From a virus (lineage: Duplodnaviria > Heunggongvirae > Uroviricota > Caudoviricetes): a stretch of 33,823 nt of DNA. The stretch lies in IMG/VR virus record IMGVR_UViG_2877251553_000003, one strand, 5' to 3'. Of this stretch, positions 1-31,048 are shown one piece after another. Under the pieces are notes generated by a model. The model did no database searches. It saw nothing but the letters and a program-made list of their open reading frames with translations, and had not been told where the DNA came from. The translations under genes and the position numbers were made by a program. Position 1 is the stretch's first letter; every line of letters starts with the position of its first letter.

Positions 1-624
1 CTAGCGTGCGCCTGTGCTTAAGCATATCTTAACTACCAGTGCCAGAATTGGGTCCTGACGTTTGCAATCAGCCAGCAATTCAACAATCTGCTCATGGGTA
101 AGCCATGCCATCTCTTTTTCTGCGATGGTGAATTTTCGCATGTTCTCCAGTGGGTTCGGATACGACCATTCGCCCAGACGGGATAGTTCGCTAAAAACAC
201 TACTTAGATAGCTTTGCTCCAGGTTAATGGTGACCGGGCTTGCTCCTTTCTTCCATTTCTCGCTGAAGTAGATCTCGCCTGTCAGGCGTTTATCTCGATA
301 GTGGGCAAACATTTTAGAGGTGAGATCGGTTGCAAGAGGATTGCCCAGAGCGTCAACCATCAACAGCAATTTGTCATAGACATGCTGCCCAGCTGTCAGA
401 GATTTACCATGTAGTTTGAACCATAGCTCAACCACGTCTTTCAGTGTTCGACGATCCACTGATTCACCCAGCCAGGGCTTTGCTTCGGTTTCTTCCATCG
501 TGTGGCGCTCAAAAGCCAGTGCTTCGCCTTTGGTGGCGAATTGTTTACGCACACGACGCCCACTTCGTCCGGCAGGGTAACATTCGCAAAGCCATTTCCC
601 AGTGGTGAGTTTTCGTACTGCCAT
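1..624 (-). pseudogene. int: P2-family tyrosine integrase, N-terminal ~207 aa only; ORF stops at an in-frame TAG (positions 1-3) straight after the conserved CLSTGAR motif
   Basis: Translation from the ATG at 624 reads MAVRKLTTGKW...ILALVVKICLSTGAR; P2 Int continues with W after this motif and is ~335 aa, so most of the catalytic domain is absent or lies beyond a premature stop. The track ORF starting at 780 is an upstream over-extension. Confidence 0.7.
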
Positions 625-812
625 AAAAAATGCCCTCCAGTAGAGAGTATTTTTACTGTATGTATAACCAGTGTCAATGTATGAAATCCTACGACCATAC
701 ATCTCACTGAAGCCATAATGAAGTTGGCTATTCTTTTTGCTATGTGAGCATGTAACTTTTGCGGTTAACCTGCGGCTCATTTTTATTTTAGACGCAGATA
801 TAAAAGCAAAAG

Positions 813-1016
813 TTATCGTGAGTTTTTAGTACAGATTTTTTTGGATTTACTAATAGTTCCATCATTGCAAACAAATTTTCCATCGGAGGTACAGTGAGAG
901 ACACCTCCCTTTTTCCCAGAACAAGGATAATTTTTAGCATAGGTAGTTAGTGGGCTTAATAACAAAGAGCATGATAAAGAGCATGATAAAACCACAAAAA
1001 ATACTTTACCAAGCAT
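813..1016 (-). CDS. Hypothetical small secreted cysteine-rich protein (67 aa)
   Basis: ATG at 1016 preceded by GGAGG; hydrophobic N-terminus ([15 protein letters not shown]) then a Lys-rich tail with 4 Cys; AT-rich; contains a 12-bp tandem duplication (gagcatgataaa x2). Confidence 0.45.
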
Positions 1017-1030
1017 AGTTTCCTCCGGTA

Positions 1031-1606
1031 TTATCTAACATATTTAACTGTTAAACTTATAATTTTACCAATTATTTCAATGTCTTCTATCTTACAGTCG
1101 AAGGCTCTGTTTCCACCCTCGACGAAGATTCTTCCACCGGGTAAACGAGTAATGTCACGGATCGTTACTTCGCCATCAATACTTATTACCCATTTACCAT
1201 CACGTATGTCATCAAATTCTTTATCACAAATAAATTCAGAATTGTTATCTGTGATGACAAAAGGTTTTTTAAACGTAGAGGGTAGAAATCCCTTATCAAA
1301 AATATAAAAACCGTCTTCACGCAAGGCACCATCAGATAATACATATTTAGCAACTTCCATAGTATTTGTATTACCTGAAGTTTGCTTTGAACCATGTCCG
1401 GTTGTGAGCCAATTAAGCGAGGTGCCCGTTTCAAGGGCGCACTGGATTACCCATTCTGCTGGGAATGAGTCACGCATGTAGCGTGTGGCGAGTGTACTTT
1501 TAGAGATTCCTAAATGATCGCACAACGCCTGTCGAGTCTTGAATCCATAAGCTTCTACCATGCGCTCTATGGCGCCTCGTCCGCCTTTCTCCAAATTCAT
1601 GGTCAC
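1031..1606 (-). CDS. cI: Phage 186-type CI immunity repressor
   Basis: 191 aa; N-terminal HTH region (AYGF...LATRY) and overall similarity to 186 CI as recalled; divergent from apl. Confidence 0.8.
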
Positions 1607-1725
1607 TCCAAGTGAACTTTTATCTTGGCGATTTCACTGTGCGATCGTATGCTTATGGTGTTCACAAAATACAAACGATCCGTATTCGTCCTGATTAATC
1701 ATCATTAAACGAGGAATGTTGCATC
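1607..1725. promoter_or_regulatory. Lysis-lysogeny switch region between divergent cI and apl (promoters and operators expected)
   Basis: Intergenic position between divergently transcribed repressor and excisionase-like genes; short inverted motifs (GTCACT/GTGAAC, TTCACTGTG) visible; no operator mapped. Confidence 0.4.
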
Positions 1726-1947
1726 ATGAGACCTAACATTTCAATCACTCTTACCACGCCTCATGTGACTATTGAACGCTATAGCGAGCTGACAGGGCTA
1801 TCCATCGATACCATCAATGACATGTTGGCTGATGGACGCCTTATCCGTCACCGTCTGCGCAAAGATAAAAAACGCGAAAAAGTGATGATCAACATAGCAG
1901 CAATGACCGTTGATGCGCTTTCAGAATGCAATCTAAACCTTAATTAG
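1726..1947 (+). CDS. apl: Apl/Cox-like excisionase/regulator (73 aa)
   Basis: Small basic protein ([21 protein letters not shown]) in the apl/cox position; GAGGA upstream of the ATG. Confidence 0.55.
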
Positions 1948-1979: not shown

Positions 1980-2156
1980 ATGTTTGATTACCAAGTTTCC
2001 AAACATCCATATTTTGATGAAGCCTGTCGTGCATTTGCACTGCGCCACAATCTGGTGCAACTGGCAGAACGTGCAGGCATGAATGTGCAGATTCTGCGGA
2101 ACAAGCTGAACCCAGCTCAGCCTCATTTATTAACCGCACCAGAAATCTGGCTGCTT
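1980..2156 (+). pseudogene. cII: 186 CII-like transcriptional activator, truncated after ~59 codons by IS911
   Basis: [59 protein letters not shown] matches the 186 CII N-terminus as recalled; the reading frame runs directly into the IS911 left end at 2157. Confidence 0.75.
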
Positions 2157-2360
2157 TGAAGTGGCACACTGAATTTGGCCACCTGAACAGAGGTGATATG
2201 CTCACCTCAGAACAACACAGGTGCTCCAATGAAAAAAAGAAATTTTAGCGCAGAGTTTAAACGCGAATCCGCTCAACTGGTTGTTGACCAGAAATACACG
2301 GTGGCGGTGATGCTGCCAACTTACTGATTTAGTGTATGATGGTGTTTTTGAGGTGCTCCA

Positions 2361-2636
2361 GTGGCTTCTGTTTCTATCAGCTGTCCCTCCTGTTCAGCTA
2401 CTGACGGGGTGGTGCGTAACGGCAAAAGCACTGCCGGACATCAGCGCTATCTCTGCTCTCACTGCCGTAAAACATGGCAACTGCAGTTCACTTACACCGC
2501 TTCTCAACCCGGTACGCACCAGAAAATTATTGATATGGCCATGAATGGCGTTGGATGCCGGGCAACTGCACGCATTATGGGCGTTAGCCTCAACACGATT
2601 TTACGTCACTTAAAAAACTCAGGCCGCAGTCGGTAA
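2361..2636 (+). CDS. insA: IS1 InsA
   Basis: 91-aa [25 protein letters not shown]... with the zinc-finger-like CxxC...CxxC. Confidence 0.9.
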
Positions 2637-2680
2637 CCTCGCGCATACAGCCGGGCAGTGACGTCATCGTCTGCGCGGAA

Positions 2681-4174
<1,494 letters not shown>

Positions 4175-4182
4175 CCACTTCA

Positions 4183-4822
4183 CGCCAGAGTTTTATTTGA
4201 GATCGCAAACAGGGAGGTGGCTTATTACAACATAAGGCAGGAGTTTAATTACTCAACTGAAATTACTGATTTCATGAAAGCGGTATATTTCCTGTATCTC
4301 AATCGTCACGGTTACCGTGGTTTATGTCGCTATAACAAGAGCGGGCATTTCAACATTCCCTACGGCAATTATAAAAATCCGTATTTCCCTGAAAAAGAAA
4401 TTCGCGCATTTGCAGAAAAAGCCCAGCGAGCAACGTTTATCTGCGCCAGCTTTGATGAAACGCTGGCGATGTTGAAGGCGGGGGATGTGGTGTATTGCGA
4501 TCCACCGTATGACGGTACGTTTTCCGGCTATCACACTGATGGTTTCACTGAAGATGACCAGTATCACCTAGCATCCGTTCTTGAACATCGGTCATCAGAA
4601 GGACATCCGGTCATTGTTTCTAACAGTGACACATCCCTGATCCGTTCGCTGTATTGCAATTTTACTCACCACTATATCAAGGTAAAACGCAGCATCGGTG
4701 TGGCAGCTGGCGAGGGTAAATCAGCAACAGAAATCATTGCTGTTTCCGGGCCGCGCTGCTGGGTGGGATTTGATTATTCGCGTGGCGTGGATAGTTCTGC
4801 CGTGTACGGAGTACGTGCATGA
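4183..4822 (+). pseudogene. dam: Dam-family N6-adenine DNA methyltransferase, 5'-truncated at the IS911 right end
   Basis: Translation from the IS boundary aligns with E. coli Dam from about residue 60 onward ([23 protein letters not shown] motif IV); the N-terminal part is missing. Confidence 0.75.
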
Positions 4823-4927
4823 GCCATGCCGATATGAACAACTGCTGCGGCTTTAACGAGGCTGCCGCAGCGTTCTCATGGAACAGCCCGAAAAAGGCCA
4901 TTAACCCTTATCTGGACCCGGCGGAAG

Positions 4928-6278
4928 TTGCGCCGCGAGGCACTGAGTGATCAGGTCTGGGAGCGTTATTTTTTTTATGAATCACGTGATCCTGTCCAGC
5001 ACGAAATGGAGCAGGATAAGCTCATTAGCCGGGCAAAGCTGGCGCATGAGCAGCAGCGTTTTAATCCGGATATGGTCATTCTGGCGGACGTCAACGCCCA
5101 GCCTTCCCATATCAGCAAGCCGCTGATGCAACGTATTGAATACTTCAGCAGCCTGGGCAGGCCAAAGGCTTATTCCCGCTATTTACGTGAGACGATTAAG
5201 CCATGTCTGGAACGACTGGAGCATGTACGCGACAGCCAGCTATCTGCATCTTTTCGTTTTATGGCAAGCCATGTAGGGCTGGACGGCCTGCTGATTCTGC
5301 CTGAAATGAGTCAGGATCAGGTGAAACGCCTGTCTACCCTTGTCGCTGCGCATATGAGCATGTGCCTTGATGCAGCTTGTGGTGATTTGTATGCCACCGA
5401 TGACGTTAAGCCAGAAGAAATCCGCAAGACATGGGAAAAGGTGGCAGCGGAAACCCTGCGTCTGGATGTCATCCCGCCTGCGTTTGAGCAACTCCGTCGG
5501 AAAAGAAACCGCCGTAAACCCGTGCCCTATGAACTCATTCCGGGTTCGCTGGCGCGTATGTTGTGCGCCGACTGGTGGTACCGGAAATTATGGAAAATGC
5601 GTTGCGAATGGCGGGAAGAGCAGTTGCGTGCTGTCTGCCTGGTCAGCAAAAAAGCATCTCCCTATGTCAGCTATGAAGCCGTGATGCATAAACGTGAGCA
5701 GCGCCGCAAGTCATTGGAGTTTTTCCGTTCTCATGAACTGGTGAACGAAGAGGGCGACACGCTGGATATGGAAGACGTGGTAAACGCCAGCAGCAGCAAC
5801 CCGGCGCACCGCCGCAATGAGATGATGGCCTGTGTTAAAGGTCTGGAGCTTATCGCGGAAATGCGCGGTGACTGCGCCGTTTTCTACACCATTACCTGTC
5901 CGTCACGTTTCCATTCCACGCTCAATAACGGCAGACCAAACCCAACCTGGACAAATGCGACGGTAAGACAAAGCAGCGATTATCTGGTCGGCATGTTTGC
6001 TGCATTTCGTAAGGCGATGCACAAAGCCGGGTTGCGCTGGTATGGCGTGCGGGTGGCTGAGCCGCATCATGACGGTACAGTTCACTGGCACCTGTTGTGT
6101 TTTATGCGCAAAAAAGACCGCCGCGCCATTACTGCATTGTTGCGTAAGTTTGCCATCCGTGAAGACCGCGAGGAACTGGGTAATAACACTGGTCCACGCT
6201 TTAAATATGAGCTGATAAACCCGCGCAAAGGAACGCCGACAAGCTACATCGCGAAATACATCAGTAAGAACATTGACG
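4928..6278 (+). pseudogene. A: P2 A / 186 A-type rolling-circle replication initiator, 5' portion, interrupted by the IS66-family element
   Basis: HUH-type motif (VHWHLLCF) and the YIAKYISK tyrosine pair just before the insertion point; start uncertain (TTG at 4928; an ATG ORF at 4819-4950 in another frame could be the true N-terminus). Confidence 0.8.
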
Positions 6279-6349
6279 GTAAGCGTACAGCCTGAACCGT
6301 CTGGTCAGAATCTGACGAATTAGACAAAGTGGTGTCCACCAAATAAGTA

Positions 6350-6750
6350 GTGGGAACCAAAGTGTCAGATATGCAGAAAAATGTGAATCCCGGCAGGCGA
6401 AAAGGCTGCCCTAATTATCCTCCCGAATTTAAACAGCAGCTCGTTGCTGCCTCCTGTGAACCCGGGATATCCATCTCAAAACTTGCTCTTGAAAATGGCA
6501 TTAACGCCAATCTGTTGTTCAAATGGCGACAACAATGGCGCGAGGGAAAGCTGCTATTACCTTCTTCAGAGAGCCCCAGCTACTTCCTGTGACTCTCGAT
6601 GCAGCTGCCGAACAGCCAGAATCGCTCGCAGAGGATCCGGAAACCCTCAGTATCAGCTGTGAGGTAACGTTCCGGCACGGGACGCTCCGCTTCAATGGCA
6701 ATGTCAGCGAAAAGCTCCTGACTCTGCTGATACAGGAACTGAAGCGATGA
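6350..6750 (+). CDS. tnpA: IS66-family TnpA (orf1); frame break in a C-run near 6574-6577
   Basis: Two overlapping track ORFs (6350-6592, 6523-6750) read as one protein if one C is added; start uncertain (GTG 6350 or ATG 6371). Confidence 0.7.
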
Positions 6751-7094
6751 TCCCGTTACCTTCCGGGACCAAAATTTGGCTGGTTGCCGGTATCACCGAT
6801 ATGAGAAATGGCTTCAACGGCCTGGCGGCAAAGGTGCAGACGACGCTGAAAGACGCTCCGATGTCAGGTCACGTTTTTATCTTCCGTGGGCGTAATGGCA
6901 GTCAGGTAAAGCTCCTCTGGTCTACCGGCGATGGACTGTGTCTGCTGACCAAACGGCTGGAGCGCGGCCGCTTCGCCTGGCCGTCAGCCCGGGATGGCAA
7001 AGTGTTCCTCACACCGGCACAGCTGGCGATGCTCCTTGAAGGTATCGACTGGCGGCAGCCTAAAAGACTGCTTACGTCCCTGACTATGTTGTAA
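6747..7094 (+). CDS. tnpB: IS66-family TnpB (orf2)
   Basis: 115-aa ORF MIPLPSGTKIWLVAGITDMRNGFNGLA... overlapping the tnpA stop (ATGA). Confidence 0.8.
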   Translation: MIPLPSGTKIWLVAGITDMRNGFNGLAAKVQTTLKDAPMSGHVFIFRGRNGSQVKLLWSTGDGLCLLTKRLERGRFAWPSARDGKVFLTPAQLAMLLEGIDWRQPKRLLTSLTML

Positions 7095-7142
7095 GCCTCT
7101 TTATCCTGGTCGACGCTGAATGAGCCTGGTAATATACCCGGT

Positions 7143-8680
7143 ATGAGCAGCTCACTTCCTGACGATATCAATGCACTGAAACGTCTCCTTGCCGAACAGG
7201 AGGCGCTGAACCGTGCCCTGCTGGAAAAGCTGAACGAGCGTGAACGCGAAATAGACCATCTGCAGGCACAGCTGGATAAGCTGCGCCGGATGAACTTCGG
7301 CAGCCGCTCCGAAAAAGTCTCCCGTCGTATCGCACAGATGGAAGCTGACCTGAAGGCACTTCAGAAAGAAAGTGATACCCTTACCGGTCGGGTTGACGAC
7401 CCGGCCGTGCAGCGCCCGCTGCGTCAAACCCGCACCCGCAAACCGTTCCCCGAATCACTCCCCCGCGATGAAAAACGGCTGCTGCCGGCAGCGTCATGCT
7501 GCCCGGAATGTGGAGGCTCACTGAGCTATCCGGGTGAGGATGCCGCCGAACAGCTGGAGTTGATGCGCAGCGTCTTCCGGGTTATCCGGACTGTACGTGA
7601 AAAGCATGCCTGTACTCAGTGCGATGCCATCGTGCAGGCCCCGCGCCTTCACGGCCCATCGAGCGGGGTATCGCAGGACCGGGGCTGCTGGCCCGCGTGC
7701 TGATCTCAAAGTATGCAGAGCACACCCCGCTGTACCGCCAGTCTGAAATGTACGGCCGCCAGGGCGTGGAGCTGAGTCGTTCACTGCTGTCGGGCTGGGT
7801 GGATGCATGCTGCCGGCTACTGTCACCGCTGGAAGAAGCGCTTCAGGACTATGTGCTGACTGACGGTAAGCTCCATGCTGATGACACGCCTGTCCCGGTG
7901 CTGTTGCCAGGCAATAAGAAAACGAAGACCGGGCGGTTATGGACCTACGTTCGTGACGACCGTAACGCCGGGTCAACGCTGGCGCCGGCGGTGTGGTTCG
8001 CTTACAGCCCGGACAGAAAAGGCATCCATCCGCAGACCCATCTTGCGGGGTTCAGTGGTGTACTGCAGGCGGATGCATACGCCGGGTTCAACGAGCTGTA
8101 CCGGGATGGCCGGATAACGGAAGCCGCCTGTTGGGCTCACGCCCGCCGTAAAATCCACGATGTGCACGTTCGCACCCCGTCAGCCCTGACGGAGGAAGCG
8201 CTGAAACGGATCGGCGAACTGTACGCCATCGAGGCAGAGATAAGGGGAATGACGGCGGAGCAGCGCCTTGCCGAACGTCAGTTGAAAACGAAACCGCTGC
8301 TGAAATCCCTGGAAAGCTGGCTGCGTGAAAAGATGAAAACCCTGTCGCGACACTCAGAACTGGCGAAAGCGTTCGCATACGCCCTGAACCAGTGGCCGGC
8401 GCTGACGTACTATGCAGATGATGGCTGGGCTGAGGCGGACAATAATATCGCTGAAAATGCGTTGCGGATGGTCAGTCTGGGCCGCAAAAACTACCTGTTC
8501 TTCGGTTCGGATCATGGAGGAGAGCGGGGAGCGCTGCTGTACAGCCTGATCGGGACGTGCAAACTGAACGGAGTGGAGCCAGAAAGCTACCTCCGCTATG
8601 TACTTGACGTCATAGCCGACTGGCCGATAAACCGGGTCGGCGAACTGCTCCCCTGGCGCGTAGCACTGCCGACTGAATAA
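7143..8680 (+). CDS. tnpC: IS66-family transposase TnpC (orf3); frame break near 7638-7647
   Basis: Track ORFs 7143-7703 and 7619-8680 join into one ~510-aa protein (leucine-zipper N-terminus, CxxC...CxxC, DDE region) with a single-base correction. Confidence 0.75.
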
Positions 8681-8725
8681 CACATCCCCGTCAATACGGT
8701 TCTTGCTGCACGCTTACCATTGACG

Positions 8726-9615
8726 GGCGTGGTCTGGCTGGCGAGATCAGCAAGGAAACGGGTAAATCCCTGCGTGATAACGCTGAATACGTTAATCCCT
8801 GGGCGTCTCTGCATCGTGTTCAGCAATTCCGCTTCTTTGGTATTCCAGGGCGTCAGGCTTACCGTGAACTGCGGTTGTTGGCTGGTCAGGCGGCAAGGCA
8901 GCAGGGTGACAAAAAAGCAGGTGCGCCGGTACTGGATAACCCGCGCCTTGATGCCATCCTGGCTGCTGCTGATGCTGGCTGTTTTGCCACCTACATTATG
9001 AGGCAGGGCGGCGTGCTGGTTCCTCGCAAATATCACTTGATCAGAACCGCTTATGAAATCAATGAAGAGCCGACCGCCTATGGCGATCACGGTATTCGTA
9101 TTTATGGCATCTGGTCACCCATTGCAGAAGGCAAGATCTGCACTCATGCAGTGAAGTGGAAAATGGTTCGTAAAGCCGTTGACGTTCAGGAGGCGGCAGC
9201 CGACCAGGGCGCTTGCGCCCCTTGGACTCGTGGCAATAACTGTCCCCTTGCTGAAAATTTGAACCAACAGGAGAAAGATAAATCAGCTGATGGGAACCCC
9301 AGAACGGACATTACCAGCATGGATGACAAGGAGTTGCACGATTACCTGCACAGTATGAGCAAAAAAGAGCGCCGGGAACTGGCAGCAAGGTTACGCCTGG
9401 TGAAACCGAAACGGCGTAAAGACTACAAACAGCGAATTACAGACCATCAGCGACTGCAGCTCGTGTATGAGCTGAAGTCCAGAGGATTTGATGGCAGCGA
9501 GAAAGAGGTCGATTTACTCCTTCGCGGAGGCAGTATTCCGTCAGGAGCAGGCCTGCGTATCTTCTATCGGAACCAGCGTTTGCAGGAAGATGATCAGTGG
9601 CGGAACCTGTATTAA
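8726..9615 (+). pseudogene. A: Replication initiator A, 3' portion (resumes in frame after the IS66 element and duplication)
   Basis: Removing 6279-8725 restores ...KNIDG|[21 protein letters not shown]... in one frame; stop at 9613-9615. Confidence 0.8.
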
Positions 9616-9768
9616 TTACGCGGGTTAACAATTCGTGCTCTTAATAATACCAGGCATATCAGGCTGATGAACGTAAAAAAACGTTTTACATCAGTAAGAT
9701 TATTATATACTGTAAATATAAACAGTGGTTATGCATGCAGTATTGCGTGTGGTGTCATAGGAGGAAAG

Positions 9769-9957
9769 ATGCAGGACTATTTTTTGGAGTCTTTGAAGCT
9801 CCAGCGCATTGATTTTTTTCTTAAGCTTGTAGCGGCTAGTGAGTGTAGTGATGAAGAGAAGGGGCTGGCTCTGCAGTGGGTTTCTGAATTGACTGATGAA
9901 CTCATGGCAAAAATCAGAACCCACGAATACAACCGCTCAATGGATGTCATCAGCTGA
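9769..9957 (+). CDS. Hypothetical small protein (62 aa)
   Basis: ATG at 9769 preceded by AGGAGGA; the track ORF from 9667 is probably over-extended. Confidence 0.4.
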   Translation: MQDYFLESLKLQRIDFFLKLVAASECSDEEKGLALQWVSELTDELMAKIRTHEYNRSMDVIS

Positions 9958-9967
9958 GGTGACTTTT

Positions 9968-10201
9968 ATGCGCATTGAAATAATGATCGATAAAGAGCAG
10001 AAGATTAGCCAGTCTACCCTGGACGCTCTTGAATCCGAGCTTTACCGCAATCTGCGCCCTCTGTATCCCAAAACGGTAATTCGTATCCGCAAAGGTAGCT
10101 CTAACGGTGTGGAACTTACCGGATTGCAACTGGACGAAGAAAGAAAACAAGTGATGAAAATTATGCAGAAGGTGTGGGAAGACGACAGCTGGCTGCATTA
10201 A
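9968..10201 (+). CDS. DinI-family protein (77 aa)
   Basis: MRIEIMIDKEQKISQSTLDALESELYRNLRPLYP...VWEDDSWLH resembles DinI (MRIEV...WESADDWFV) as recalled. Confidence 0.65.
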   Translation: MRIEIMIDKEQKISQSTLDALESELYRNLRPLYPKTVIRIRKGSSNGVELTGLQLDEERKQVMKIMQKVWEDDSWLH

Positions 10202-17961: not shown

Positions 17962-17964
17962 TCC

Positions 17965-19360: not shown

Positions 19361-19363
19361 ATT

Positions 19364-20072: not shown

Positions 20073-20073
20073 A

Positions 20074-20451: not shown

Positions 20452-20876
20452 ACCGGTTGCTGCTGGTTGTGCTGGCGTTATTATTGGCGGCGCTGGGCTG
20501 GCAGACGTGGCGGCTGGCTGATGCCAGCCAGACCATCAGCACGCAGGCAGACGAGCTGCAGAGCAAAAGCCAGGCACTGGCAAAGAGCAACAGCCAGCTT
20601 ATCAGCCTGTCCATTCTGACTGAAACCAATAACCGGGAGCAGGCGCGGCTCTATGCCGAAGCAGAACAGACCAGTGTACTGCTGAGACAACGACAACGCC
20701 GGATTGAGGAACTGAAACGTGAGAACGAGGATTTACGTCGCTGGGCTGATACTCCTTTGCCTGCTGACATTATCCGGCTGCGGGAACGTCCGGCACTCAC
20801 CGGAGGTGCAGCTTACCGTCAGTGGTTGTCCGCGAGTGACGCCGTGTCGGCTGGAGCAGGCAGCGCCGCGCACTAA
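20448..20876 (+). CDS. lysB: LysB (Rz-like i-spanin)
   Basis: N-terminal TM then coiled-coil; overlaps lysC. Confidence 0.7.
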   Translation: MNRLLLVVLALLLAALGWQTWRLADASQTISTQADELQSKSQALAKSNSQLISLSILTETNNREQARLYAEAEQTSVLLRQRQRRIEELKRENEDLRRWADTPLPADIIRLRERPALTGGAAYRQWLSASDAVSAGAGSAAH

Positions 20877-21009
20877 CGGTGATCTGAATGCGTTGCTGGA
20901 TGAAACGGAGGCCGCCTGGGCGGTCTGTGCAGACAAAGTGGACATGATTATTGCGTGTCAGGAGCGAAATAGTGAACAAACCACAATCCCTGCGCCACGC
21001 CCTCAATAA
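20719..21009 (+). CDS. lysC: LysC (Rz1-like o-spanin lipoprotein)
   Basis: Lipobox LTLSGC, Pro-rich, begins inside lysB in another frame. Confidence 0.7.
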   Translation: MRTRIYVAGLILLCLLTLSGCGNVRHSPEVQLTVSGCPRVTPCRLEQAAPRTNGDLNALLDETEAAWAVCADKVDMIIACQERNSEQTTIPAPRPQ

Positions 21010-21403
21010 AGCAGTGCCTTATGTCCGTAATAACCCGGACAAACTGCATCTGTTTGTGGATAACGGTTCGCTGGTTGCCTCCGGGGCTAGCTCCATGTCA
21101 TGGGAGTACCGCTACACCCTGAACGTGGTGATTGAAGATTTCAGCGGCGACCAGAATCTGCTGATGGCCCCGGTTTTGCTGTGGCTGCGGGATAACCAGC
21201 CCGATGCGATCAATAACCCGGCGTTACGGGAAAAGCTATTCACCTTTGAGGTGGATATTCTGCGCAACGATGTCTGTGATATCAGCCTTAACCTGCAACT
21301 GACGGAGCGTGTGCTGGTCAGCACTGACGGCAGTGTGTCGAACGTTGAAGCGGTAGCGGAACCTGATGAACCTGAAGAAATGTGGACGGTGAAACGTGGC
21401 TGA
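20972..21403 (+). CDS. R: gpR tail completion protein
   Basis: Similarity to P2 gpR (FVDNGS, RYTLNVV, WLRDNQPD); GTG start at 20972 preferred over TTG at 20951. Confidence 0.75.
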   Translation: MNKPQSLRHALNKAVPYVRNNPDKLHLFVDNGSLVASGASSMSWEYRYTLNVVIEDFSGDQNLLMAPVLLWLRDNQPDAINNPALREKLFTFEVDILRNDVCDISLNLQLTERVLVSTDGSVSNVEAVAEPDEPEEMWTVKRG

Positions 21404-21792
21404 ATTGCAGAAGGTGGACGACTGGCTGAGTGCATTATTGGCGAATCTGGAGCCAGCCGCAAGAAGCCGCATGATGCGCCAGCTGGCGCAGGAACTGCGC
21501 CGGACACAGCAGCAGAATATCAGGATGCAGCGCAATCCAGATGGCAGCAGTTATGAGCCGCGCAGGGTAACAGCACGCAGCAAAAAGGGGCGCATCAAAC
21601 GTCAGATGTTTACAAAGCTGCGCACCACAAAATACCTGAAAACTGCAGCCAGCGCCGATTCTGCCAGCGTACAGTTTGAAGGTAGGGTGCAGCGCATTGC
21701 CCGTATTCACCATTACGGCTTGAGTGATCGCGTCAGTCGAAAAGGTATTTATACCATCTATGCGAAAAGGCAGTTATTAGGTTTTAATGTCC
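21396..21792 (+). pseudogene. S: gpS tail completion protein, 3'-truncated by IS1 copy 2
   Basis: PAARSRMMRQLA...QQQNIRMQRNPDGS matches P2 gpS; the ORF stop is created inside the IS1 end. Confidence 0.75.
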
Positions 21793-21847
21793 GGTAATGC
21801 TGCCAACTTACTGATTTAGTGTATGATGGTGATTTTAAGGTGCTTGC

Positions 21848-22123
21848 GTGGCTTCCATTTCCATCAGATGTCCTTCCTGCTCCGCTATTGAAGGCGTGGT
21901 GCGTAACGGCAAAAGAACTGCCGGACATCAGCGCTATCTCTGCTCTCATTGCCGTAAAACATGGCAACTACAGTTCACTTACACCGCCTCTCAGCCCGGT
22001 ACGCACCAGAAAATCATTGATATGGCCATGAATGGCGTCGGATGTCGCGCCAGTGCACGCATTATGGGCGTTGGCCTCAACACGGTTTTACGTCACTTAA
22101 AAAACTCAGGCCGCAGTCGGTAA
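21848..22123 (+). CDS. insA: IS1 InsA
   Basis: 91 aa, 8 substitutions relative to the copy-1 InsA. Confidence 0.9.
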
Positions 22124-22167
22124 CCTCGCGCATACAACCGGGCAGTGATGTGATTGTCTGCGCTGAA

Positions 22168-22545
22168 ATGGACGAACAGTGGGGCTACGTCGGTGCTAAA
22201 TCACGTCAGCGCTGGCTGTTTTACGCGTATGACAGGATACGGAGGACGGTTGTGGCGCACGTCTTCGGTGAACGCACTCTGGCCACACTGGAGCGTCTTC
22301 TGAGCCTGCTGTCGGCCTTTGAGGTCGTGGTATGGATGACGGATGGCTGGCCGCTGTATGAATCACGCCTGAAGGGAAAGCTGCACGTTATCAGCAAGCG
22401 TTACACTCAGCGCATTGAGCGACATAATCTGAATCTGAGACAACATCTGGCAAGGCTGGGACGGAAGTCACTGTCGTTCTCAAAATCGGTGGAGCTGCAT
22501 GACAAGGTCATCGGGCATTATCTGAACATAAAACACTATCAGTAA
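22168..22545 (+). CDS. insB: IS1 InsB
   Basis: [16 protein letters not shown]... in the same position within the element as in copy 1. Confidence 0.85.
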
Positions 22546-22560
22546 GTTGGCAGCATTACC

Positions 22561-23038
22561 ATGCAGCCCTCACAATATAGTTAAAAGCGACATTTCGTGG
22601 GCGTGTTTCATTCGCACCTGCAGGTTTAGTCGTTGCCGCAACAACACCACCCTCTGTAATAGCCGGGTTGGGAATTGGGTAATTATCGAAGTCAATGGCC
22701 GGAGACAGGGGCGTGATTTGTTTTAAAATCGTGGTGCCTGTAAAACTTTCCAGAGTCTGGTCGTTAGTTCGTGAAGTCCAGATTCCCCAATAGTGGTTAT
22801 GACTGACAATCGCACCGTCCTGAAGCGTTAATAATCCCCTTCCGTTATCCACTCCACGTCCGTCATCCCAGCCACGAATAAACTCACCGCGTAAATCAGG
22901 CAATTTATTTGTCGGGTAAGCCTTTGCCAGTTCCGGGTATTCTTCAGCAGAAAAAGCCGCACCATTGCATTTCAGCCAGCCTGTCGGCGGAGTGGCTGAA
23001 GGCCACGGAACAGGCACACCAACAGGTAATGCAGAGCC
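22561..23038 (-). pseudogene. Tail-fibre C-terminal variable domain (alternative, inverted copy) with no attached constant region
   Basis: PWPSATPPTGWLKCNGAAFSAEEYPELAKAYP...ETRPRNVAFNYIVRAA is the conserved tail-fibre C-terminal pattern (P2 H / Mu S type); begins at the crossover site and abuts IS1. Confidence 0.65.
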
Positions 23039-23064
23039 TTCTCCCAAACCAACGTTTAAGAAAA
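23039..23064. other. Gin/Hin/Cin/Pin-type 26-bp recombination crossover site
   Basis: TTCTCCCAAACC-AA-CGTTTAAGAAAA fits the half-site pattern (TTnTCnnAAACC / GGTTTnnGAnAA) next to the invertase gene. Confidence 0.5.
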
Positions 23065-23119: not shown

Positions 23120-23685
23120 ATGCTTATTGGCTATGTACGCGTGTCAACAAATGACCAGAACACCGATTTGCAACGTAATGCACTGAACTGCGCGGGATGT
23201 GAGCGGATTTTTGAGGATAAAATCAGTGGCACTAAGCCCGACAGACCGGGGCTTAAAAAACTGCTCAGGACACTATCGGCAGGAGACACGCTGGTTGTCT
23301 GGAAGCTGGACAGACTGGGACGCAGTATGCGGCATCTTGTTACGCTGATAGAAGAGTTGCGCCAGCGTGGTGTGAATTTCCGAAGCCTGACTGACAGTAT
23401 TGATACCAGTACCCCAATGGGCCGTTTCTTTTTTCACGTCATGGGGCTCTGGCTGAAATGGAACGTGAACTGATAGTTGAACGTACCAGAGCAGGGCTGG
23501 CTGCAGCTCGTGCCAAAGGCAGAGTAGGTGGACTCCGTCCTAAGTTGACCACCGAACAGTGGGCACAGATTGGACGTTTACTCGAGGCCGGAGAATCAAG
23601 ACAGCGTATTGCACTGATTTTTGATGTGGGCGTTTCTACCATTTATAGAAAATTTCCGGCGAATGAGAGCAATGAATCGCCCTGA
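23120..23685 (+). CDS. pin: Pin/Gin/Hin-family serine DNA invertase; frame break in a G-run near 23444-23447
   Basis: MLIGYVRVSTNDQNTDLQRNAL...VVWKLDRLGRS...FFFHVMG|ALAEMERELIVERT... nearly identical in pattern to E. coli Pin as recalled. Confidence 0.85.
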
Positions 23686-23827: not shown

Positions 23828-25000
23828 ATGGCTCAGGATTACCACCACGGGGTGCGCGTTGTTGAAGTCAACGAAGGCACCCGATCCATTACCACGGTGA
23901 GCACCGCCATCGTGGGTATGGTCTGCACGGGCGATGATGCCGATGCAAAAATGTTTCCTCTTAATAAACCTGTGCTGATCACTGATGTGCTGACCGCCAG
24001 CGGTAAAGCGGGTGAGTCTGGCACGCTGGCCCGTTCGCTGGATGCCATCGCTGACCAGGCAAAACCCGTGACCGTTGTTGTGCGTGTGCCGCAGGGTGAA
24101 ACGGAAGAAGAAACCACAACCAATATCATTGGCGCAGTGACCGCCGAGGGTAAAAAAACAGGTATGAAAGCCCTGTTATCTGCCCAGTCACAGCTCGGCG
24201 TTAAACCGCGCATTCTCGGCGTGCCAGGTCACGACACGAAGGCGGTAGCTACTGAGTTGCTGAGCGTGGCGCAAAGCCTGCGTGGATTTGCTTACCTGTC
24301 AGCGTATGGTTGCAAGACGGTGCAGGAAGCAATCACTTACCGTGAAAACTTCAGTCAGCGTGAAGGAATGCTGATCTGGCCCGACTTTACTGGCTGGGAC
24401 ACGGTGCTGAATGCCGAAGCAACGGCTTATGCCACCGCCCGTGCGCTCGGTCTGCGCGCTAAAATTGATGAGCAGACCGGATGGCACAAAAGCCTGTCCA
24501 ACGTGGGCGTGAACGGTGTCACCGGAATTTCTGCTGATGTGTTCTGGGATCTGCAGAACCCGGCAACCGATGCAGGTCTGCTTAACCAGAACGATATCAC
24601 CACGCTTATCCGCAAAGACGGTTTCCGCTTCTGGGGTTCCCGCTGTCTGAGCGATGATCCGCTCTTTGCCTTCGAAAACTACACCCGCACGGCGCAGGTG
24701 CTGATGGACACGATGGCAGAAGCGCACATGTGGGCGGTGGACAAACCGCTGAACCCGTCGCTGGCCCGCGACATTATCGAAGGTATCCGCGCCAAAATGC
24801 GTAGCCTGGTCAGTCAGGGCTATCTCATTGGTGGTGATTGCTGGCTGGACGAGTCGGTGAACGATAAAGACACGCTGAAAGCCGGGAAACTCACCATCGA
24901 TTACGACTACACGCCAGTGCCGCCACTTGAAAACCTGATGCTGCGTCAGCGCATCACCGATCAGTACCTGGTGAATTTCTCCAGCCAGGTCAGCGCGTAA
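23828..25000 (+). CDS. FI: gpFI tail sheath protein
   Basis: 390-aa ORF, P2 FI-like; RBS AGGAGG. Confidence 0.9.
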
Positions 25001-25009
25001 GGGGACAAC

Positions 25010-25524
25010 ATGGCTTTACCACGCAAATTAAAACACCTGAACCTGTTTAACGACGGGAACAACTGGCAGGGGATCGTTGAGTCGCTGACGCTGCCGAAAT
25101 TCACCCGCAAATATGAGAAGTATCGCGGCGGCGGTATGCCCGGAGCGGTGGATGTGGATCTGGGACTGGATGACAGTGCACTGGATACAGAATTTTCCAT
25201 TGGTGGTACTGAACTGCTGCTGTTTAAGCAGATGGGCAAAGCCACGGTGGATGGCATCCAGCTGCGCTTTACCGGCTCTATTCAGCGTGATGATACCGGG
25301 AAGTGCAGGCCGTGGAGCTTGTGGTGCGTGGACGTCACAAAGAAGTAGATTCCGGCGAGTGGAAGACGGGCGAAAGCAACACTACCAAAGTGACCAGTAC
25401 CAACAGCTACGCGAAGCTGACCATCAATGGTGAGGTGCTCTATGAAGTGGACCTGATCAACATGGTGGAAATTGTGGACGGTGTGGACCTGATGGAAGCG
25501 CACCGCAACGCCCTCGGCCTCTGA
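25010..25524 (+). CDS. FII: gpFII tail tube protein; frame break near 25298-25300
   Basis: Track ORFs 25010-25348 and 25303-25524 join as ...QRDDTGEVQAVELVVRGRHKEV... with one added G. Confidence 0.85.
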
Positions 25525-25578
25525 TGTATCTGAACGGCGCGGAATGCCGCGCCAGAACCTAATTTACAGGACAACAAA

Positions 25579-25880
25579 ATGAGCGATAAGCAGACTGAAA
25601 AGACCATTCAACTGGATACTCCCATCATGCGCGGTAAAACAGAAATTACCGAAATTGTGTTGCGTAAACCGCAGTCCGGTGCGCTGCGCGGCACACGCCT
25701 GCAGGCCATTATGGATATGGATGTGAACGCGATGATGACCGTGATCCCCGCATCTCCAGTCCGGCACTGACTGCACAGGAAATTGCAGAGATGGACCCGG
25801 CAGATCTCACTGCCATGTCGGTTGAGGTTGTCACTTTTTTGTTGAAGAAGTCGGTGCTTGCCGGTTTACCGACAGCCTGA
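25579..25880 (+). CDS. E: gpE tail assembly chaperone; frame break in a C-run near 25746-25749
   Basis: MSDKQTEKTIQLDTPIMRGK...; with one added C the ORF continues to the TGA at 25878-25880. Confidence 0.7.
25845..25851 (+). other. TTTTTTG slippery heptamer for the programmed -1 frameshift producing E+E' (E' would end at 26014)
   Basis: T6G near the 3' end of E; the -1 frame is open to the TGA at 26012-26014, overlapping the start of T, as described for P2 E/E'. Confidence 0.5.
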
Positions 25881-26006
25881 CGGTTGACGATCTGGTGGCT
25901 GATATCGCCACCATCTTTCACTGGCCGCCATCCGTTACTGACGTTATGCCGCTGACCGAAGTGCTGGAATGGCGGGATAAAGCGATTCAGAGAAGCGGGG
26001 CCAGCC

Positions 26007-29000
26007 ATGAGTGACAATAACCTGCGTCTGCAGGTGATTCTTAATGCGGTTGACAAACTCACCCGCCCATTTCGATCCGCGCAGGCCAGTTCAAGAGAAC
26101 TGGCTGCTGCTGTCAAAAAATCCCGCGATGCAATAAAGCAGCTTGATCAGGCCGGGAGCAGTCTGGACAGCTTCCGAAAGCTGCAGGCAGAAAATCAGAA
26201 ATTAGGCGACAGGCTGAACTATGCCCGCCAGCGTGCAAATTTGCTCAGTCAGGAACTGGGAGCGATGGGGCCGCCTTCGCAACGTCAGGTTGTTGCTCTG
26301 GGCCGTCAACGGCTGGCTGTTCAGCGCCTGGAAGAACGCCAGAAAAAGCTGCAGCAGCAGACGGCGCTTGTGCGTGCAGAACTTTATCGTGCTGGTATTT
26401 CAGCTAATGATGGCGCCAGTGCGACGGCCCGCATTACCCGTGAAACGATGCGTTATAACAGGCAGCTTTCTGAGCAGGAAGCGAGGTTACGACGTGTCGG
26501 GGAGCAACAGCGAAAAATGCACGCCGCCCGGGGGCTTACGCCAGGCGTCTTGAGGTAAGGGATCGTATTGCAGGTGCCGGAGCCACCACCACGGCTGCAG
26601 GGCTGGCAATGGGCGCACCAGTGATGGCGGCAGTAAAAAGCTATACCAGCATGGAAGATGCCATGAAAGGTGTGGCAAAGCAGGTCAATGGTCTGCGTGA
26701 CGATAATGGCAACCGCACTGCGCGTTTTTACGAAATGCAGGGTGCCATCAAGGCTGCCAGCGAACAGTTGCCGATGGAAAACGGTGCTGTGGACTTCGCC
26801 GCACTGGTTGAAGGTGGTGCGCGCATGAACGTCGCAAACCCTGACGACAGCTGGGAAGACCAGAAACGTGACCTGCTGGCCTTCGCCAGCACGGCGGCAA
26901 AGGCGGCAACAGCCTTTGAACTGCCAGCGGATGAACTGTCAGAAAGTCTGGGGAAAATCGCCCAGCTCTACAAAATCCCTACCCGCAATATTGAGCAGCT
27001 CGGTGATGCGCTGAACTATCTGGATGATAACGCCATGTCGAAAGGGGCGGACATCATTGATGTCATGCAACGCCTGGGCGGTGTGGCTGACCGTCTGGAT
27101 TATCGTAAAGCGGCGGCGCTGGGTTCCACCTTCCTGACACTCGGCGCTGCGCCTGAGGTTGCAGCCAGTGCAGCAAACGCGATGGTGCGTGAATTGTCCA
27201 TTGCCACCATGCAAAGCAAGAGTTTCTTTGAAGGGATGAATCTGCTGAAACTCAATCCAGAAGTGATTGAAAAGCAGATGACGAAGGATGCGATGGGAAC
27301 TATCCAGCGGGTGCTGGAGAAGGTGAATGCGCTGCCACAGGATAAGCGCCTGTCTGCCATGACCATGTTGTTTGGTAAAGAGTTTGGCGATGACGCAGCG
27401 AAACTGGCAAACAACCTGCCGGAACTTCAGCGCCAGTTAAAACTGACTGCGGGCAATGATGCGCTCGGTTCCATGCAGAAAGAATCCGACATCAACAAGG
27501 ATTCACTTTCTGCTCAGTGGTTGCTGGTCAAAACCGGAGCACAGAACACCTTCAGCAGCCTGGGGGAAACGCTGCGCCAGCCGCTGATGGATATTCTGTA
27601 CACGGTGAAAAGCGTCACGGGGGCGTTGCGTCGCTGGGTGGAAGCTAACCCGGAACTGACGGGCACTCTGATGAAAGTAGCCGCTGTGGTAGCTGCCGTT
27701 ACCGTGGGCCTCGGCACCTTAGAGGTGGCGCTGGCTGCAGTGCTGGGGCCGCTGGCAGTCATCCGTCTGGGATTCTCTGTGCTGGGTATCAAAACGTTAC
27801 CTTCCGTTACGGCAGCAGTAACCCGAACCAGCAACGCGTTGTCCTGGCTGGCTGGCGCACCACTGGCACTGCTGCGACGCGGGCTTGCTTCATCGGGCAA
27901 CGCTGCAGGTTTACTTACTGCGCCGTTGTCGTCTTTGCGCCGCACGGCATCACTGACGGGAAATGTCCTGAAAACTGTAGCAGGTGCGCCGGTTGCACTT
28001 TTGCGGGTCTGGATTATCCGGTTTACGTGCGGTTGCTGTGATGTTTATGAATCCACTGGCGGTACTACGCGGCGGACTGGCTGCCACAGGCACGGTGCTG
28101 CGTATGCTCGCATCCGGTCCACTGGCGATGCTGCGCGTTGCCCTGTATGCCGTCTCTGGTCTGTTAGGTGCTCTGCTCAGTCTGATAGGTCTTGTGGTTA
28201 CTGCACTGGCGGGTGTGGCGCTGGTTGTCTGGAAATACTGGCAGCCCATCACCACATTTCTCGGTGGCGTGGTGGAAGGATTCAAAGCGGCGGCAGGTCC
28301 TGTCAGTGCCGCGTTCGAACCGCTTAAGCCTGTGTTCCAGTGGATTGGCGACAAAGTACAGGCGCTGTGGGGCTGGTTTACTGATCTGCTGACGCCCGTT
28401 AAGTCGACCTCTGCCGAACTGCAGAGTGCAGCGGCAATGGGGCGACGATTCGGGAGGCTCTGGCGGAAGGGCTGAATATGGTCATGCATCCGCTGGACTC
28501 CCTGAAATCCGGCGTTTCCTGGTTGCTGGAGAAACTTGGCATTGTCAGTAAAGAGGCCGCAAAGGCGAAACTGCCGGAAAGCGTGACGCGTCAGCAACCT
28601 GCGACGGTGAATGCAGACGGTAAAGTGATGATGCCATCGGGTGGTTTTCCGTCATGGGGATATGGCTTTGCGGGGATGTATGACAGCGGCGGGTATATCC
28701 CGCGCGGGCAGTTTGGCATCGTCGGTGAAAACGGGCCGGAAATTGTTAACGGCCCGGCAAATGTGACCAGCCGGAGAAATACAGCTGCACTGGCTGCCGT
28801 TGTTGCCGGAATGATGGGTGTTGCTGCTACGCCAGCAGAGCTTCCACCGTTGCACCCTTTGGCACTTCCCGCGAAAGGCGGTGAAGCGATGGTGAGTCGT
28901 GCAGCCACTGTGCCGCCCGTTCAACGGATTGAGGCACCGATGCAGATCATCATTCAAACGCAGCCAGGACAAAGTGCGCAGGATATTGCGCGGGAGGTGG

Positions 29001-29082
29001 CCCGCCAGCTTGATGAACGTGAACGCAGGCTGAAGGCAAAAGCCAGGAGTAACTACAGCGATCAGGGGGATACGACGCATGA
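26007..29082 (+). CDS. T: gpT tail tape measure protein; at least four frame breaks
   Basis: Four consecutive track ORFs (26007-26558, 26609-28327, 27984-28475, 28478-29329) carry one continuous Ala/Gly/Leu-rich tape-measure sequence; breaks at G-runs near 26530, 28439 and 29065 and one unlocated break between 27984 and 28327. Confidence 0.8.
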
Positions 29083-29564
29083 TGATGGTGCTGGGATTGT
29101 ACGTGTTTATGCTGCGCACCGTGCCGTATCAGGAGCTGCAGTATCAACGCAGCTGGCGACATGCGGCAAACAGCCGGGTAAACCGACGCCCGTCAACGCA
29201 GTTTCTGGGACCGGACAACGACATGCTGACGCTTTCTGGTGTTCTTATGCCGGAGGTAACGGGCGGCAGGCTGTCGTTGCTGGCTCTGGAGCAGATGGCA
29301 GAACAGGGAAAAGCATGGCCCCTGATTGAAGGCAGCGGCACGATTTACGGCATGTATGTGATTGAGGGACTGAATCAGACTAAAACGGAGTTTTTCCGCG
29401 ACGGTATGCCGCGCCGGATTGAGTTCACCCTGTCGCTAAAACGCGTGGATGAATCCCTGTCCGATATGTTCGGTGATCTCAGTGCGCAACTGAATAATCT
29501 GCAGGGAACGGCAACATCTGCCTTAAGCGATATCAGTAAAACGGTGGGAGGGCTGCTGTCGTGA
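29079..29564 (+). CDS. U: gpU tail protein
   Basis: 161-aa ORF similar to P2 gpU (WPLIEGSGTIYGMYVI, FTLSLKRVDESL). Confidence 0.85.
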   Translation: MMMVLGLYVFMLRTVPYQELQYQRSWRHAANSRVNRRPSTQFLGPDNDMLTLSGVLMPEVTGGRLSLLALEQMAEQGKAWPLIEGSGTIYGMYVIEGLNQTKTEFFRDGMPRRIEFTLSLKRVDESLSDMFGDLSAQLNNLQGTATSALSDISKTVGGLLS

Positions 29565-30660
29565 ATTTCAGCTCTGAACTGCTTAACAAAGGCAACAAAA
29601 CTCCGGCATTCAGCATCAGTATTGAAGGCAGGGATATCACCACTGTGCTGGACAACCGCCTGATGGGGCTGACGCTGACGGATAACCGGGGCTTTGAGGC
29701 GGACCAGCTTGATCTGGAGCTGGACGACGCCGATGGAAAAATCGTGCTGCCGCGCCGTGGGGCTGTCATTACGCTGGCGCTGGGCTGGAAGGGACAGCCG
29801 CTTTTCCCGAAAGGGGCATTCACGGTGGACGAGATTGAACACACTGGCGCACCGGATCGCCTGACTATCCGGGCGCGAAGTGCTGATTTTCGTGAAACGC
29901 TGAATACCCGCCGTGAAAAGTCGTGGCACAAGACCACCGTTGGGGAAGTGGTGAAGGAAATAGCTGCGCGGCACAAACTGAAGATGGCATTGGGTGAAGA
30001 CTTGTCGGATAAACTCGTGGAGCATATAGACCAGACTAATGAGAGTGACGGCAGTTTTTTGATGCGGCTGGCGCGCCAGTACGGTGCTATTGCGTCGGTG
30101 AAAAATGGCAATCTGTTATTCATCCGGCAGGGCAGGGTAAAAGCGCCAGCGGTAAACCACTACCGGTGATCACTATCACACGCAAGGACGGCGACAGTCA
30201 CCGCTTTACCCTGGCAGATCGCGGAGCTTACACGGGCGTCATTGCCAGCTGGTTGCATACCCGCGAACCCGCGAAGAAAGAAAGCACCACTGTGAAGCGT
30301 AAGCGCAGGACTAAGAAGCAGAAGAAAGAGCCGGAAGCGAAGCAGGGCGATTACCTGGTGGGTACGGATGAAAACGTGCTGGTACTTAATCGCACTTATG
30401 CCAACCGGAGCAACGCCGAACGGGCAGCGAAAATGCAGTGGGAACGCCTGCAACGCGGCGTTGCATCATTCTCGCTACAACTGGCGGAAGGGCGGGCAGA
30501 TCTCTACACAGAAATGCCTGTGAAGGTCAGTGGCTTTAAACAGCCGATAGATGATGCGGAATGGACCATTACGACTCTGACGCATACTGTCAGCCCGGAT
30601 AACGGTTTTACGACCAGTCTGGAGCTTGAAGTGAGGATTGATGATTTCGAAATGGAATGA
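29561..30660 (+). CDS. D: gpD tail protein; frame break near 30130
   Basis: Track ORFs 29561-30169 and 30166-30660 join with one added base in cagggcagggt. Confidence 0.85.
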
Positions 30661-30750
30661 TTCTTCGCAATGGAGAACTTTTAAGTTTGCAAAATGGAAT
30701 AATGCGGTATCATTATTGTGAATTTAGCAAAAATGGGGAGAACTCGAAAA

Positions 30751-30969
30751 ATGATGATTTGCCCACTGTGTGGAAGTGCCGCCCATACTCGCAGCAGTTT
30801 TCAGGTATCTTCATTGACCAAAGAGCGTTACAACCAGTGCCAGAACATTAACTGCAGCCATACTTTTGTTACCCATGAAACTTTTGTTCGTTCGATTGCA
30901 ACGCCAAAAGAGTCAAATCCGGTTCAGCCGCATCCAATGAAATCAGGACAGGTGGCGCTCTCTCTTTGA
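30751..30969 (+). CDS. ogr: Ogr zinc-finger late-gene transcription activator
   Basis: MMICPLCGSAAHTRSS...KERYNQCQNINCSHTF...RPHP matches the P2 Ogr Cys pattern; RBS GGGGAG. Confidence 0.85.
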   Translation: MMICPLCGSAAHTRSSFQVSSLTKERYNQCQNINCSHTFVTHETFVRSIATPKESNPVQPHPMKSGQVALSL

Positions 30970-31048
30970 CGCTGCCGCCATTTTGTCGCCATCGTTAAAA
31001 AACAGTGCTTCTAACATCATGATTTTAAAAGGCATAAATTTCAGACAA

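Follow-up and report, generated by a model that had tools for sequence, protein, structure and literature searches.

The 33,823-nucleotide stretch of viral DNA that we analysed in full (hereafter the window; IMG/VR record IMGVR_UViG_2877251553_000003) is, judging from its gene order and sequence identity, the remnant of a 186-like P2-family prophage lying between the host genes rcdA and ybjL. We consider it very likely that this prophage was inactivated recently and is now in neutral decay on a chromosome that is rich in insertion sequences (ISs) and probably of Shigella, that the ATPase-HNH gene pair that it carries is hotspot cargo, and that the frameshifts in the window are mostly sequencing or assembly errors. 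A preliminary description of the same DNA had proposed that the prophage is non-viable yet keeps an intact lysis cassette and a defence-like cargo because it is a domesticated remnant retained for the benefit of the host.

When complete Escherichia coli genomes were searched with megablast, no record covered at least 80% of the query. The best match was the intact prophage of E. coli UPEC-245U (NZ_CP049845.1, locus L001 of our collection), which aligns with the window in six colinear blocks at a DNA identity of 99.1–99.8% per block, or about 99.6% overall, and which has the same gene order and the same rcdA/ybjL insertion site. The intact prophage reads int, cI, an apl-like gene, cII, fil, DUF5347, DUF2732, traR, dam and A, then two small genes (one DinI-like), the AAA ATPase and the HNH endonuclease, then Q and P (divergent), O, N, M, L, X, holin, lysozyme, LysA, LysB, LysC, R, S, a DUF5677 gene, V, W, J, I, H and G, and finally an invertible fibre segment with its invertase, FI, FII, E, E′, T, U, D and ogr. 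The window retains the late-gene synteny of the P2 family (Q-P / O-N-M-L-X-lysis-R-S / tail / ogr) together with the P2-family Pfam domains Phage_portal, Terminase_6, Phage_GPO_N, Phage_cap_P2, Phage_GPL, Phage_P2_GpU, Phage_GPD and Ogr_Delta. Its likeness to coliphage 186 is read through its relatives, which contain Phage_CP76, Phage_186_Fil and Phage_CI_repr, and through gene order; what the window itself keeps of a 186-type early region is a whole cI, a fragment of cII and a LexA box before the genes at the tum position, and fil is deleted in the window and kept in the intact relatives. Compared with intact prophages of the 186/P2 family, the window lacks about 8.3 kb of phage DNA, has acquired four IS elements at three sites, and additionally carries several nonsense and frameshift mutations. 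Because the remnant is still 99.6% identical to an intact prophage, the decay appears to be recent.

The lesions are laid out in Table 1. The integrase gene had been described as truncated, and it is indeed broken, but not by deletion: the first three bases of the window read CTA (TAG on the minus strand) where the reference codon is TGG, positions 3–2156 align with L001 10001–12143, and in sibling genomes a second int open reading frame (ORF; 103 aa, PF00589) and then rcdA follow past the edge of the window. The gene thus reads as a nonsense pseudogene whose 3′ part would lie just outside the window. The disruption of cII, dam and A by IS elements was described correctly. An IS911-like element stands in place of 1,835 bp that hold the 3′ part of cII, fil, DUF5347, DUF2732, traR and the 5′ part of dam, and nested in it at 2306–3073 is an IS1 variant with a 9-bp target duplication (CACGGTGGC). 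The A gene has a 65-bp out-of-frame deletion at 4935/4936 between 10-bp repeats (AGTTGCGCCG) and is split by a 2,438-bp ISEc22-like IS66 element at 6280–8717 with the flanking repeat CATTGACGG. The loss of baseplate and tail-fibre genes is also confirmed, since about 6.4 kb is gone beside the second IS1, comprising the 3′ end of S, the DUF5677 gene, V, W, J, I, most of H, G, G′ and H′. The fragment of H that is left belongs to the invertible segment, which is frozen in the flipped orientation.

Several further lesions had been overlooked. Portal gene Q carries two nonsense mutations, K199*, which is common to the window, CP162042.1 and CP160649.1, and E122*, which occurs in the window alone at a site that no close sibling locus spans. 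Head-completion gene L has Q47* and an 18-bp deletion, both common to all close siblings, and the tape measure gene T has a real +1 G at 28005 that is also present in six other loci, in addition to three artefact-like −1 indels. The IS insertions, the two large deletions and the point lesions recur in independent assemblies, short-read drafts included; the truncated Int protein is found in 186 blocks of the collection and the truncated S protein in 345. With int, A, Q, L and T broken and V, W, J, I, H and G deleted in separately sequenced siblings as well, the claim of non-viability stands, and the element is predicted to be unable to integrate or excise, replicate, package its DNA or build a baseplate.

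The sibling genomes allow the lesions to be ordered. CP162042.1 and CP160649.1 share with the window the phage/IS911 junctions, the IS1 at S and Q K199*, and therefore their common ancestor was already dead. This ancestor would have carried Q K199*, the IS911-associated deletion from cII to dam and an IS1 in the 3′ end of S. Later additions would be int W208*, both lesions of A (the 65-bp deletion and ISEc22), those of L, the +1 in T and the IS1-mediated loss of baseplate and fibre genes. We compared the IS1 deletion loci at window 21793–23090, L004 19739–20864 and L003 12925–14600, which have the same left junction at S. The right-hand endpoint lies in the flipped H fragment in the window and in G′/H′, unflipped, in CP160649.1, which keeps the segment from P to S. 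In CP162042.1, an IS1-bounded deletion runs leftward from S into P and takes the 3′ part of P with it, so that the whole lysis cassette is lost at this locus and the cargo is kept. One left junction with differing right endpoints, together with this leftward deletion, argues for repeated IS1-mediated adjacent deletions. A different remnant at the same site, with the identical Int W208*, is found in Logan contig SRR5943232 (L009 2720–9918), where a deletion joins A to the sheath gene FI and the cargo, head, lysis and baseplate genes are gone. The window and its sister genomes with their alternative deletion outcomes thus offer a clean, datable case of stepwise IS-driven prophage decay.

Not every apparent break in the window belongs to this history. 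We counted 14 single-base losses, every one of them in a run of G or C, and the sibling assemblies are mostly free of them. Over 10.6 kb the window differs from CP026807.1 by no substitutions and three single-base gaps, and over 20 kb it differs from the draft AKNG01000051.1 by two substitutions and nine single-base gaps. Twelve of the 14 losses are unique to the assembly of the window, and the other two are otherwise found only in CP026823.1, from the same accession series. Runs of at least three A or T bases are 1.8 times commoner in the window than runs of G or C, and for the 12 losses outside IS elements the probability that all would fall in G/C runs is 4.6e-6. Because the losses are absent from siblings that otherwise differ by zero to two substitutions, all 14, including those in the ATPase gene and the host gene ybjM, are probably systematic consensus errors of a long-read assembly, and P, the invertase, FII, E and D, whose only breaks are artefact-like −1 indels, are thus likely to be whole in the real genome. 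The cargo had been called intact apart from one probable homopolymer error; the loss in the ATPase gene is indeed probably an artefact and the HNH gene is intact, but that error is one of 14. Since the 34 kb of the window show 14 or more apparent frameshifts, pseudogene counts and arguments from intact versus broken genes are unreliable when they are drawn from this assembly.

Exact protein matches place the window in assembly GCA_002949915.1 (record CP026825.1), which is probably a PacBio Shigella genome to judge from neighbouring accessions, complete genomes of Shigella reference strains: in the same series, CP026832 is PacBio S. dysenteriae 14 ATCC 49346 (PMC10132075), and CP026799 and CP026811 are PacBio S. 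flexneri (PMC9455713).

We then asked whether the survival of the lysis cassette calls for an explanation. As had been stated, the holin, endolysin and spanin genes are unbroken, and the cassette differs from that of the intact relative by four substitutions, of which a single one alters an amino acid (LysA M22I); the encoded proteins appear normal. About 15 further phage genes have survived just as well, among them cI, the apl-like gene, hyp62, the DinI-like gene, HNH, O, N, M, X, R, FI, E′, U and ogr, for a total of about 20 intact ORFs in the window. When the ten real lesions were placed at random on a 34-kb prophage, the lysis cassette was spared in 42% of simulations, the cargo in 31% and both in 10%. 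The number of artefact indels expected in the cassette is 0.64, with a probability of 0.53 of seeing none. By our own estimate, about six post-mortem inactivating events per roughly 13.5 kb of virion genes translate to about 0.7 events expected in the 1.65 kb of the cassette. Zero inactivating events in the lysis cassette is unremarkable, and its sparing is within chance.

To look for selection, we took the ancestral state from three intact prophages, kept only those variants that segregate among the dead-clade genomes, and compared nonsynonymous to synonymous changes (N:S) with and without CP026842.1, a visibly error-prone assembly. N:S was 39:17 for virion genes, 5:5 for lysis genes and 3:4 for the cargo in all dead-clade genomes, and 36:15, 3:5 and 0:3, respectively, without CP026842.1. 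The nonsynonymous fraction in virion genes is 0.70, where neutral evolution predicts 0.76 (p = 0.16); this is compatible with neutrality and with relaxed selection, and therefore the element is evolving as a dead prophage. By Fisher's test, lysis genes versus virion genes gave p = 0.28 with all genomes and 0.11 without CP026842.1, and cargo versus virion genes gave p = 0.21 and 0.03. With lysis and cargo genes pooled and CP026842.1 included, 8N:9S compares with 39N:17S for virion genes (p = 0.15). A cargo-versus-virion contrast that had seemed significant in a smaller set of genomes (p = 0.013) weakened as genomes were added, and we do not rely on it.

Three observations weigh against neutral decay. 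Without CP026842.1, the pooled lysis and cargo genes stand at 3N:8S versus 36N:15S for virion genes (p = 0.013), which hints at a trend toward constraint on these genes, in the direction that the preliminary description had proposed, although it comprises only 11–17 substitutions and hinges on one assembly; some purifying selection on lysis and cargo genes may thus be present. Among about 11 sibling genomes, there is no inactivation of a lysis gene save a doubtful LysA truncation in CP026842.1, with about 0.7 expected. Finally, CI, the LexA box, ogr and the dyad upstream of O all survive, and an expressible cassette could be a liability for which quick loss might be expected.

The surviving regulatory elements deserve a closer look. 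The LexA-box-like site is near-consensus and is the sole perfect CTGT-N8-ACAG in the window, and the hyp62/DinI-like pair downstream of it stands where 186 has its SOS-inducible tum operon. With this site in place, the dead prophage appears to keep its induction input. By comparison with P2, the TGT-N12-ACA dyad upstream of O would be an Ogr late-promoter element of the P2 type. Since CI, the LexA box, ogr and the dyad are kept, SOS could still derepress late transcription and with it the lysis genes, without virions. L Q47* may reduce lysis-gene expression by polarity, and lysis genes that are expressed without virions would burden the host, with no obvious gain. The holin is of the short HP1-family type (71 aa) and the N terminus of the endolysin is hydrophobic (MNPSIVKRCLVGAVLAIAATLPG), which suggests a pinholin/signal-arrest-release (SAR) endolysin style of lysis, unlike the classical Y/K pair of P2.

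The cargo consists of two adjacent, co-oriented genes that are 1 bp apart in NZ_CP049845.1, and its GC content is 32–38% versus about 55% in the flanks. Once the G at 11682 is restored, the ATPase is 549 aa, and it has this full length in every sibling locus that spans the whole gene or comes with a gene-caller report. Its Walker A motif reads GENGVGKS, its ABC signature LSSGE and its Walker B motif LLLIDEPETHLH, and Pfam places it in AAA_21 and AAA_15. Its best PADLOC match is PDC-M01A (1.9e-55), PtuA models being weaker (1.8e-31), and it matches the solved PtuA structure 8ee4 weakly (E = 0.0018). The HNH protein has the HNH/zinc core motif CPMC...DH...N...CKC and matches PDC-M01B in PADLOC (1.2e-33), to which all of its top 25 PADLOC matches belong; it had no Pfam match, and a sequence search of the PDB gave only chance matches to Spo0B and none to a solved PtuB. 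These matches, and the position described next, agree with the earlier view of the cargo as defence-like.

P2-like phages have a defence hotspot between gpA and gpQ, the old/tin locus (Rousset et al. 2022; PMC9122126). The window cargo lies between A, followed by the two small genes, and Q, adjoining the cos region; this particular ATPase-HNH pair is not among the systems validated in that study. In searches of phage records with tblastn, the window ATPase is homologous over its full length to lambda Ea59 at 24% identity. The core of the HNH protein shares 37% identity with lambda Ea31 (E = 2e-15). The lambda pair (L021, 24509–26973) has the same ATPase-then-nuclease order, and its proteins match PDC-M01A at 3.9e-201 and PDC-M01B at 5.8e-113, but it sits in the b region of lambda whereas the window pair sits in the P2 hotspot, and the sequences are distant. 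The cargo thus belongs to the same two-gene candidate family as lambda ea59-ea31. Lambda Ea59 also matches a PtuA (Septu) model at 5e-184. Septu has the same two-gene layout of an ABC-type ATPase (PtuA) and an HNH nuclease (PtuB), but PDC-M01 models outscore PtuA for the window ATPase and the window HNH protein has no sequence match to a solved PtuB, so that the cargo is best treated as Septu-like rather than as a member of Septu. The pair is probably intact in the real genome and would still be able to act as an anti-phage system independent of the viability of the prophage. A literature search found no functional study of PDC-M01 or of Ea59/Ea31 as a defence system.

How, then, should the intact genes be explained? 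If the prophage is in neutral decay, the unhit genes (lysis, O, N, M, X, R, FI, U, ogr, cI and the SOS/tum-position module) would be intact simply because few events have happened so far, and the ATPase-HNH pair would be ordinary P2-like hotspot cargo. The strongest competitor is that the cargo alone is selected as a working anti-phage system and that everything else, including the lysis genes, hitch-hikes with it. We regard this as a real but lesser possibility. It draws on the PDC-M01A/B and PtuA-like matches, the hotspot position, the complete ATPase and HNH motifs, the full-length ATPase in the sibling loci, the N:S of 0:3 without CP026842.1 and the retention of the cargo in CP162042.1 next to deleted head and lysis genes. 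That retention is, however, an ascertainment effect, because the HNH protein was the query that led to this genome; the N:S contrast fades once CP026842.1 is included, the cargo is spared by chance in nearly a third of simulations, SRR5943232 has lost the whole region from cargo to G despite the same int mutation, and PDC-M01 is a candidate system.

Selection on the lysis cassette as a domesticated module, giving SOS- or superinfection-triggered lysis perhaps together with the neighbouring defence cargo, seems improbable to us. In such a scheme the signal would pass from the LexA/Tum-position module through CI inactivation to Ogr and the late promoter, and the benefit could be product release or aborted infection. 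The five intact ORFs in the window and about 11 siblings, the retention of cI, the LexA box, ogr and the dyad, and the lower N:S of lysis than of virion genes all speak for it. Yet the neighbours O, N, M, X and R are equally intact and have no plausible host function, the lysis-versus-virion contrast does not reach significance, the cassette has been lost at this locus in CP162042.1, L Q47*, some 500 bp ahead of the cassette in the same operon, may have a polar effect, and lysis without virions is costly. Still less probable is a wider version in which CI, the LexA-controlled module, Ogr, the late promoter, the holin, SAR-type endolysin and spanins and the cargo form a selected suicide/defence island of a Shigella-like lineage, which would respond to SOS or, when P2/P4-type elements superinfect, to their Ogr/delta activators. 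That the modules are kept across the lineage beyond chance, as the claim of domestication implied, is not borne out by CP162042.1 or by SRR5943232, which lacks cargo and lysis genes alike; with the sparing within chance, about 15 other genes intact and an N:S trend that is not robust, we do not uphold retention for host benefit. Domesticated defective prophages, with purifying selection on cryptic-prophage genes, have reportedly been found (Bobay et al. 2014, PNAS; Wang et al. 2010, Nat Commun), and the window resembles them in being defective while keeping some intact ORFs and a plausibly useful cargo; it differs in having no robust signal of selection, in being very young and in having an intact set that is not specific to host functions. 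It offers no new principle, and if the N:S trend held in a large sample it would be one more case of selection on a cryptic prophage. We also weighed a tailocin or a helper for a satellite and discarded both readings, since the genes for baseplate, fibre, portal and head completion are either absent or damaged. That the prophage is less damaged than it appears, or even viable, its breaks being assembly artefacts, has next to no chance of being right: the 14 artefact-like deletions lend it some colour, but the IS insertions, the large deletions and W208*, K199* and the lesions in L, A and T recur independently, and baseplate and fibre genes are physically absent.

Table 1. Features of the window, with positions and strand
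Feature	Position	Strand	Remarks
Integrase N-terminal fragment, 207 aa	1..624	-	bases 1-3 are the premature TAG, W208*
YdcA-like small ORF	813..1016	-	in-frame 12-bp tandem duplication
Single-base loss	1025		intergenic
CI repressor	1031..1600	-	intact, E168D
Apl/Cox-position small ORF	1726..1947	+	intact
cII 5′ fragment	1980..2156	+	177/510 bp; cut at 2156
IS3-family (IS911-like) element	2157..4179	+	holds an IS1 variant
dam methylase 3′ fragment	4180..4822	+	
Replication endonuclease A pseudogene	4819..9615	+	
Single-base losses	6578, 7643		in ISEc22
LexA-box-like site ACTGTAAATATAAACAGT	9707..9728	+	44 bp upstream of the hyp62/DinI-like pair
hyp62 and DinI-like gene	9769..10201	+	both intact
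ABC-type ATPase (PDC-M01A, Ea59-like, PtuA-like)	10494..12142	+	-1 in GGGG at 11682
HNH nuclease (PDC-M01B, Ea31-like), 287 aa	12144..13007	+	intact
Portal Q pseudogene	13115..14145	-	K199*, E122*; artefact-like -1 in C run at 13250
Terminase P	14145..15910	-	sole break an artefact-like -1 in CCCC at 14468
TGT-N12-ACA dyad upstream of O	15958..15975	+	read directly from the sequence
O scaffold, N capsid, M small terminase	16053..18615	+	all intact
Head-completion L pseudogene	18711..19157	+	Q47* at 18849; 18-bp deletion at 18931
Tail protein X	19157..19360	+	intact, L43V
Lysis cassette, five ORFs	19364..21009	+	all intact; no stops, no indels
Holin Y	19364-19579	+	Phage_holin_2_3
Endolysin K	19560-20072	+	Phage_lysozyme
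LysA	20074-20451	+	LysA Pfam family
LysB i-spanin	20448-20876	+	
LysC o-spanin	20761-21009	+	lipobox LSGC
R and S	20972..21792	+	R intact; S without 3′ end (397/444 bp left, cut by IS1)
IS1, 768 bp	21793..22560	+	no target duplication; borders the ~6.4-kb deletion
Tail fibre H C-terminal fragment, 495 bp	22561..23055	-	178-aa Collar-domain ORF
Cin/Gin-type invertase	23120..23685	+	split solely by artefact-like -1 in GGGGG at 23443
Tail genes and late activator	23828..30969	+	FI, U, ogr intact
Single-base loss	25298		in FII
Single-base loss	25746		in E
Single-base losses	26530, 28452, 29065		in T
Single-base loss	30130		in D
Host flank ybjL, ybjM, grxA	31205..33823		ybjL intact; ybjM artefact-like -1 in GGGGG at 33474

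Some smaller points concern the sub-lineage to which the window belongs. The duplication in the YdcA-like ORF (AAAGAGCATGAT at 964–975, next to cI) is common to six loci and to the whole sub-lineage. The IS1 nested at 2306–3073 and the IS1 beside the large deletion are about 91% identical and are thus distinct isoforms. Terminase P in the sub-lineage has four derived amino-acid changes (H41Y, E82D, I139N and D457Y) and one synonymous change, which are clustered and would fit relaxed selection after inactivation. In UYIT01000003.1 and CP026834.1 (L007 and L010, 1–3700), ybgS and aroG follow ISEc22 in place of the rest of A, from which the prophage in these genomes is read as split by an IS-mediated chromosomal rearrangement. 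SRR5943232 encodes a 558-aa SNIPE/T5orf172-domain protein between int and cI, and its cI is different (198 aa). Lastly, the intact relatives carry between S and V, on the opposite strand, the 339-aa DUF5677 gene (L001 29281–30300) that is deleted in the window; the protein had no PADLOC match, and its position, which we take to be the orf30 slot of P2, may be a second cargo slot.

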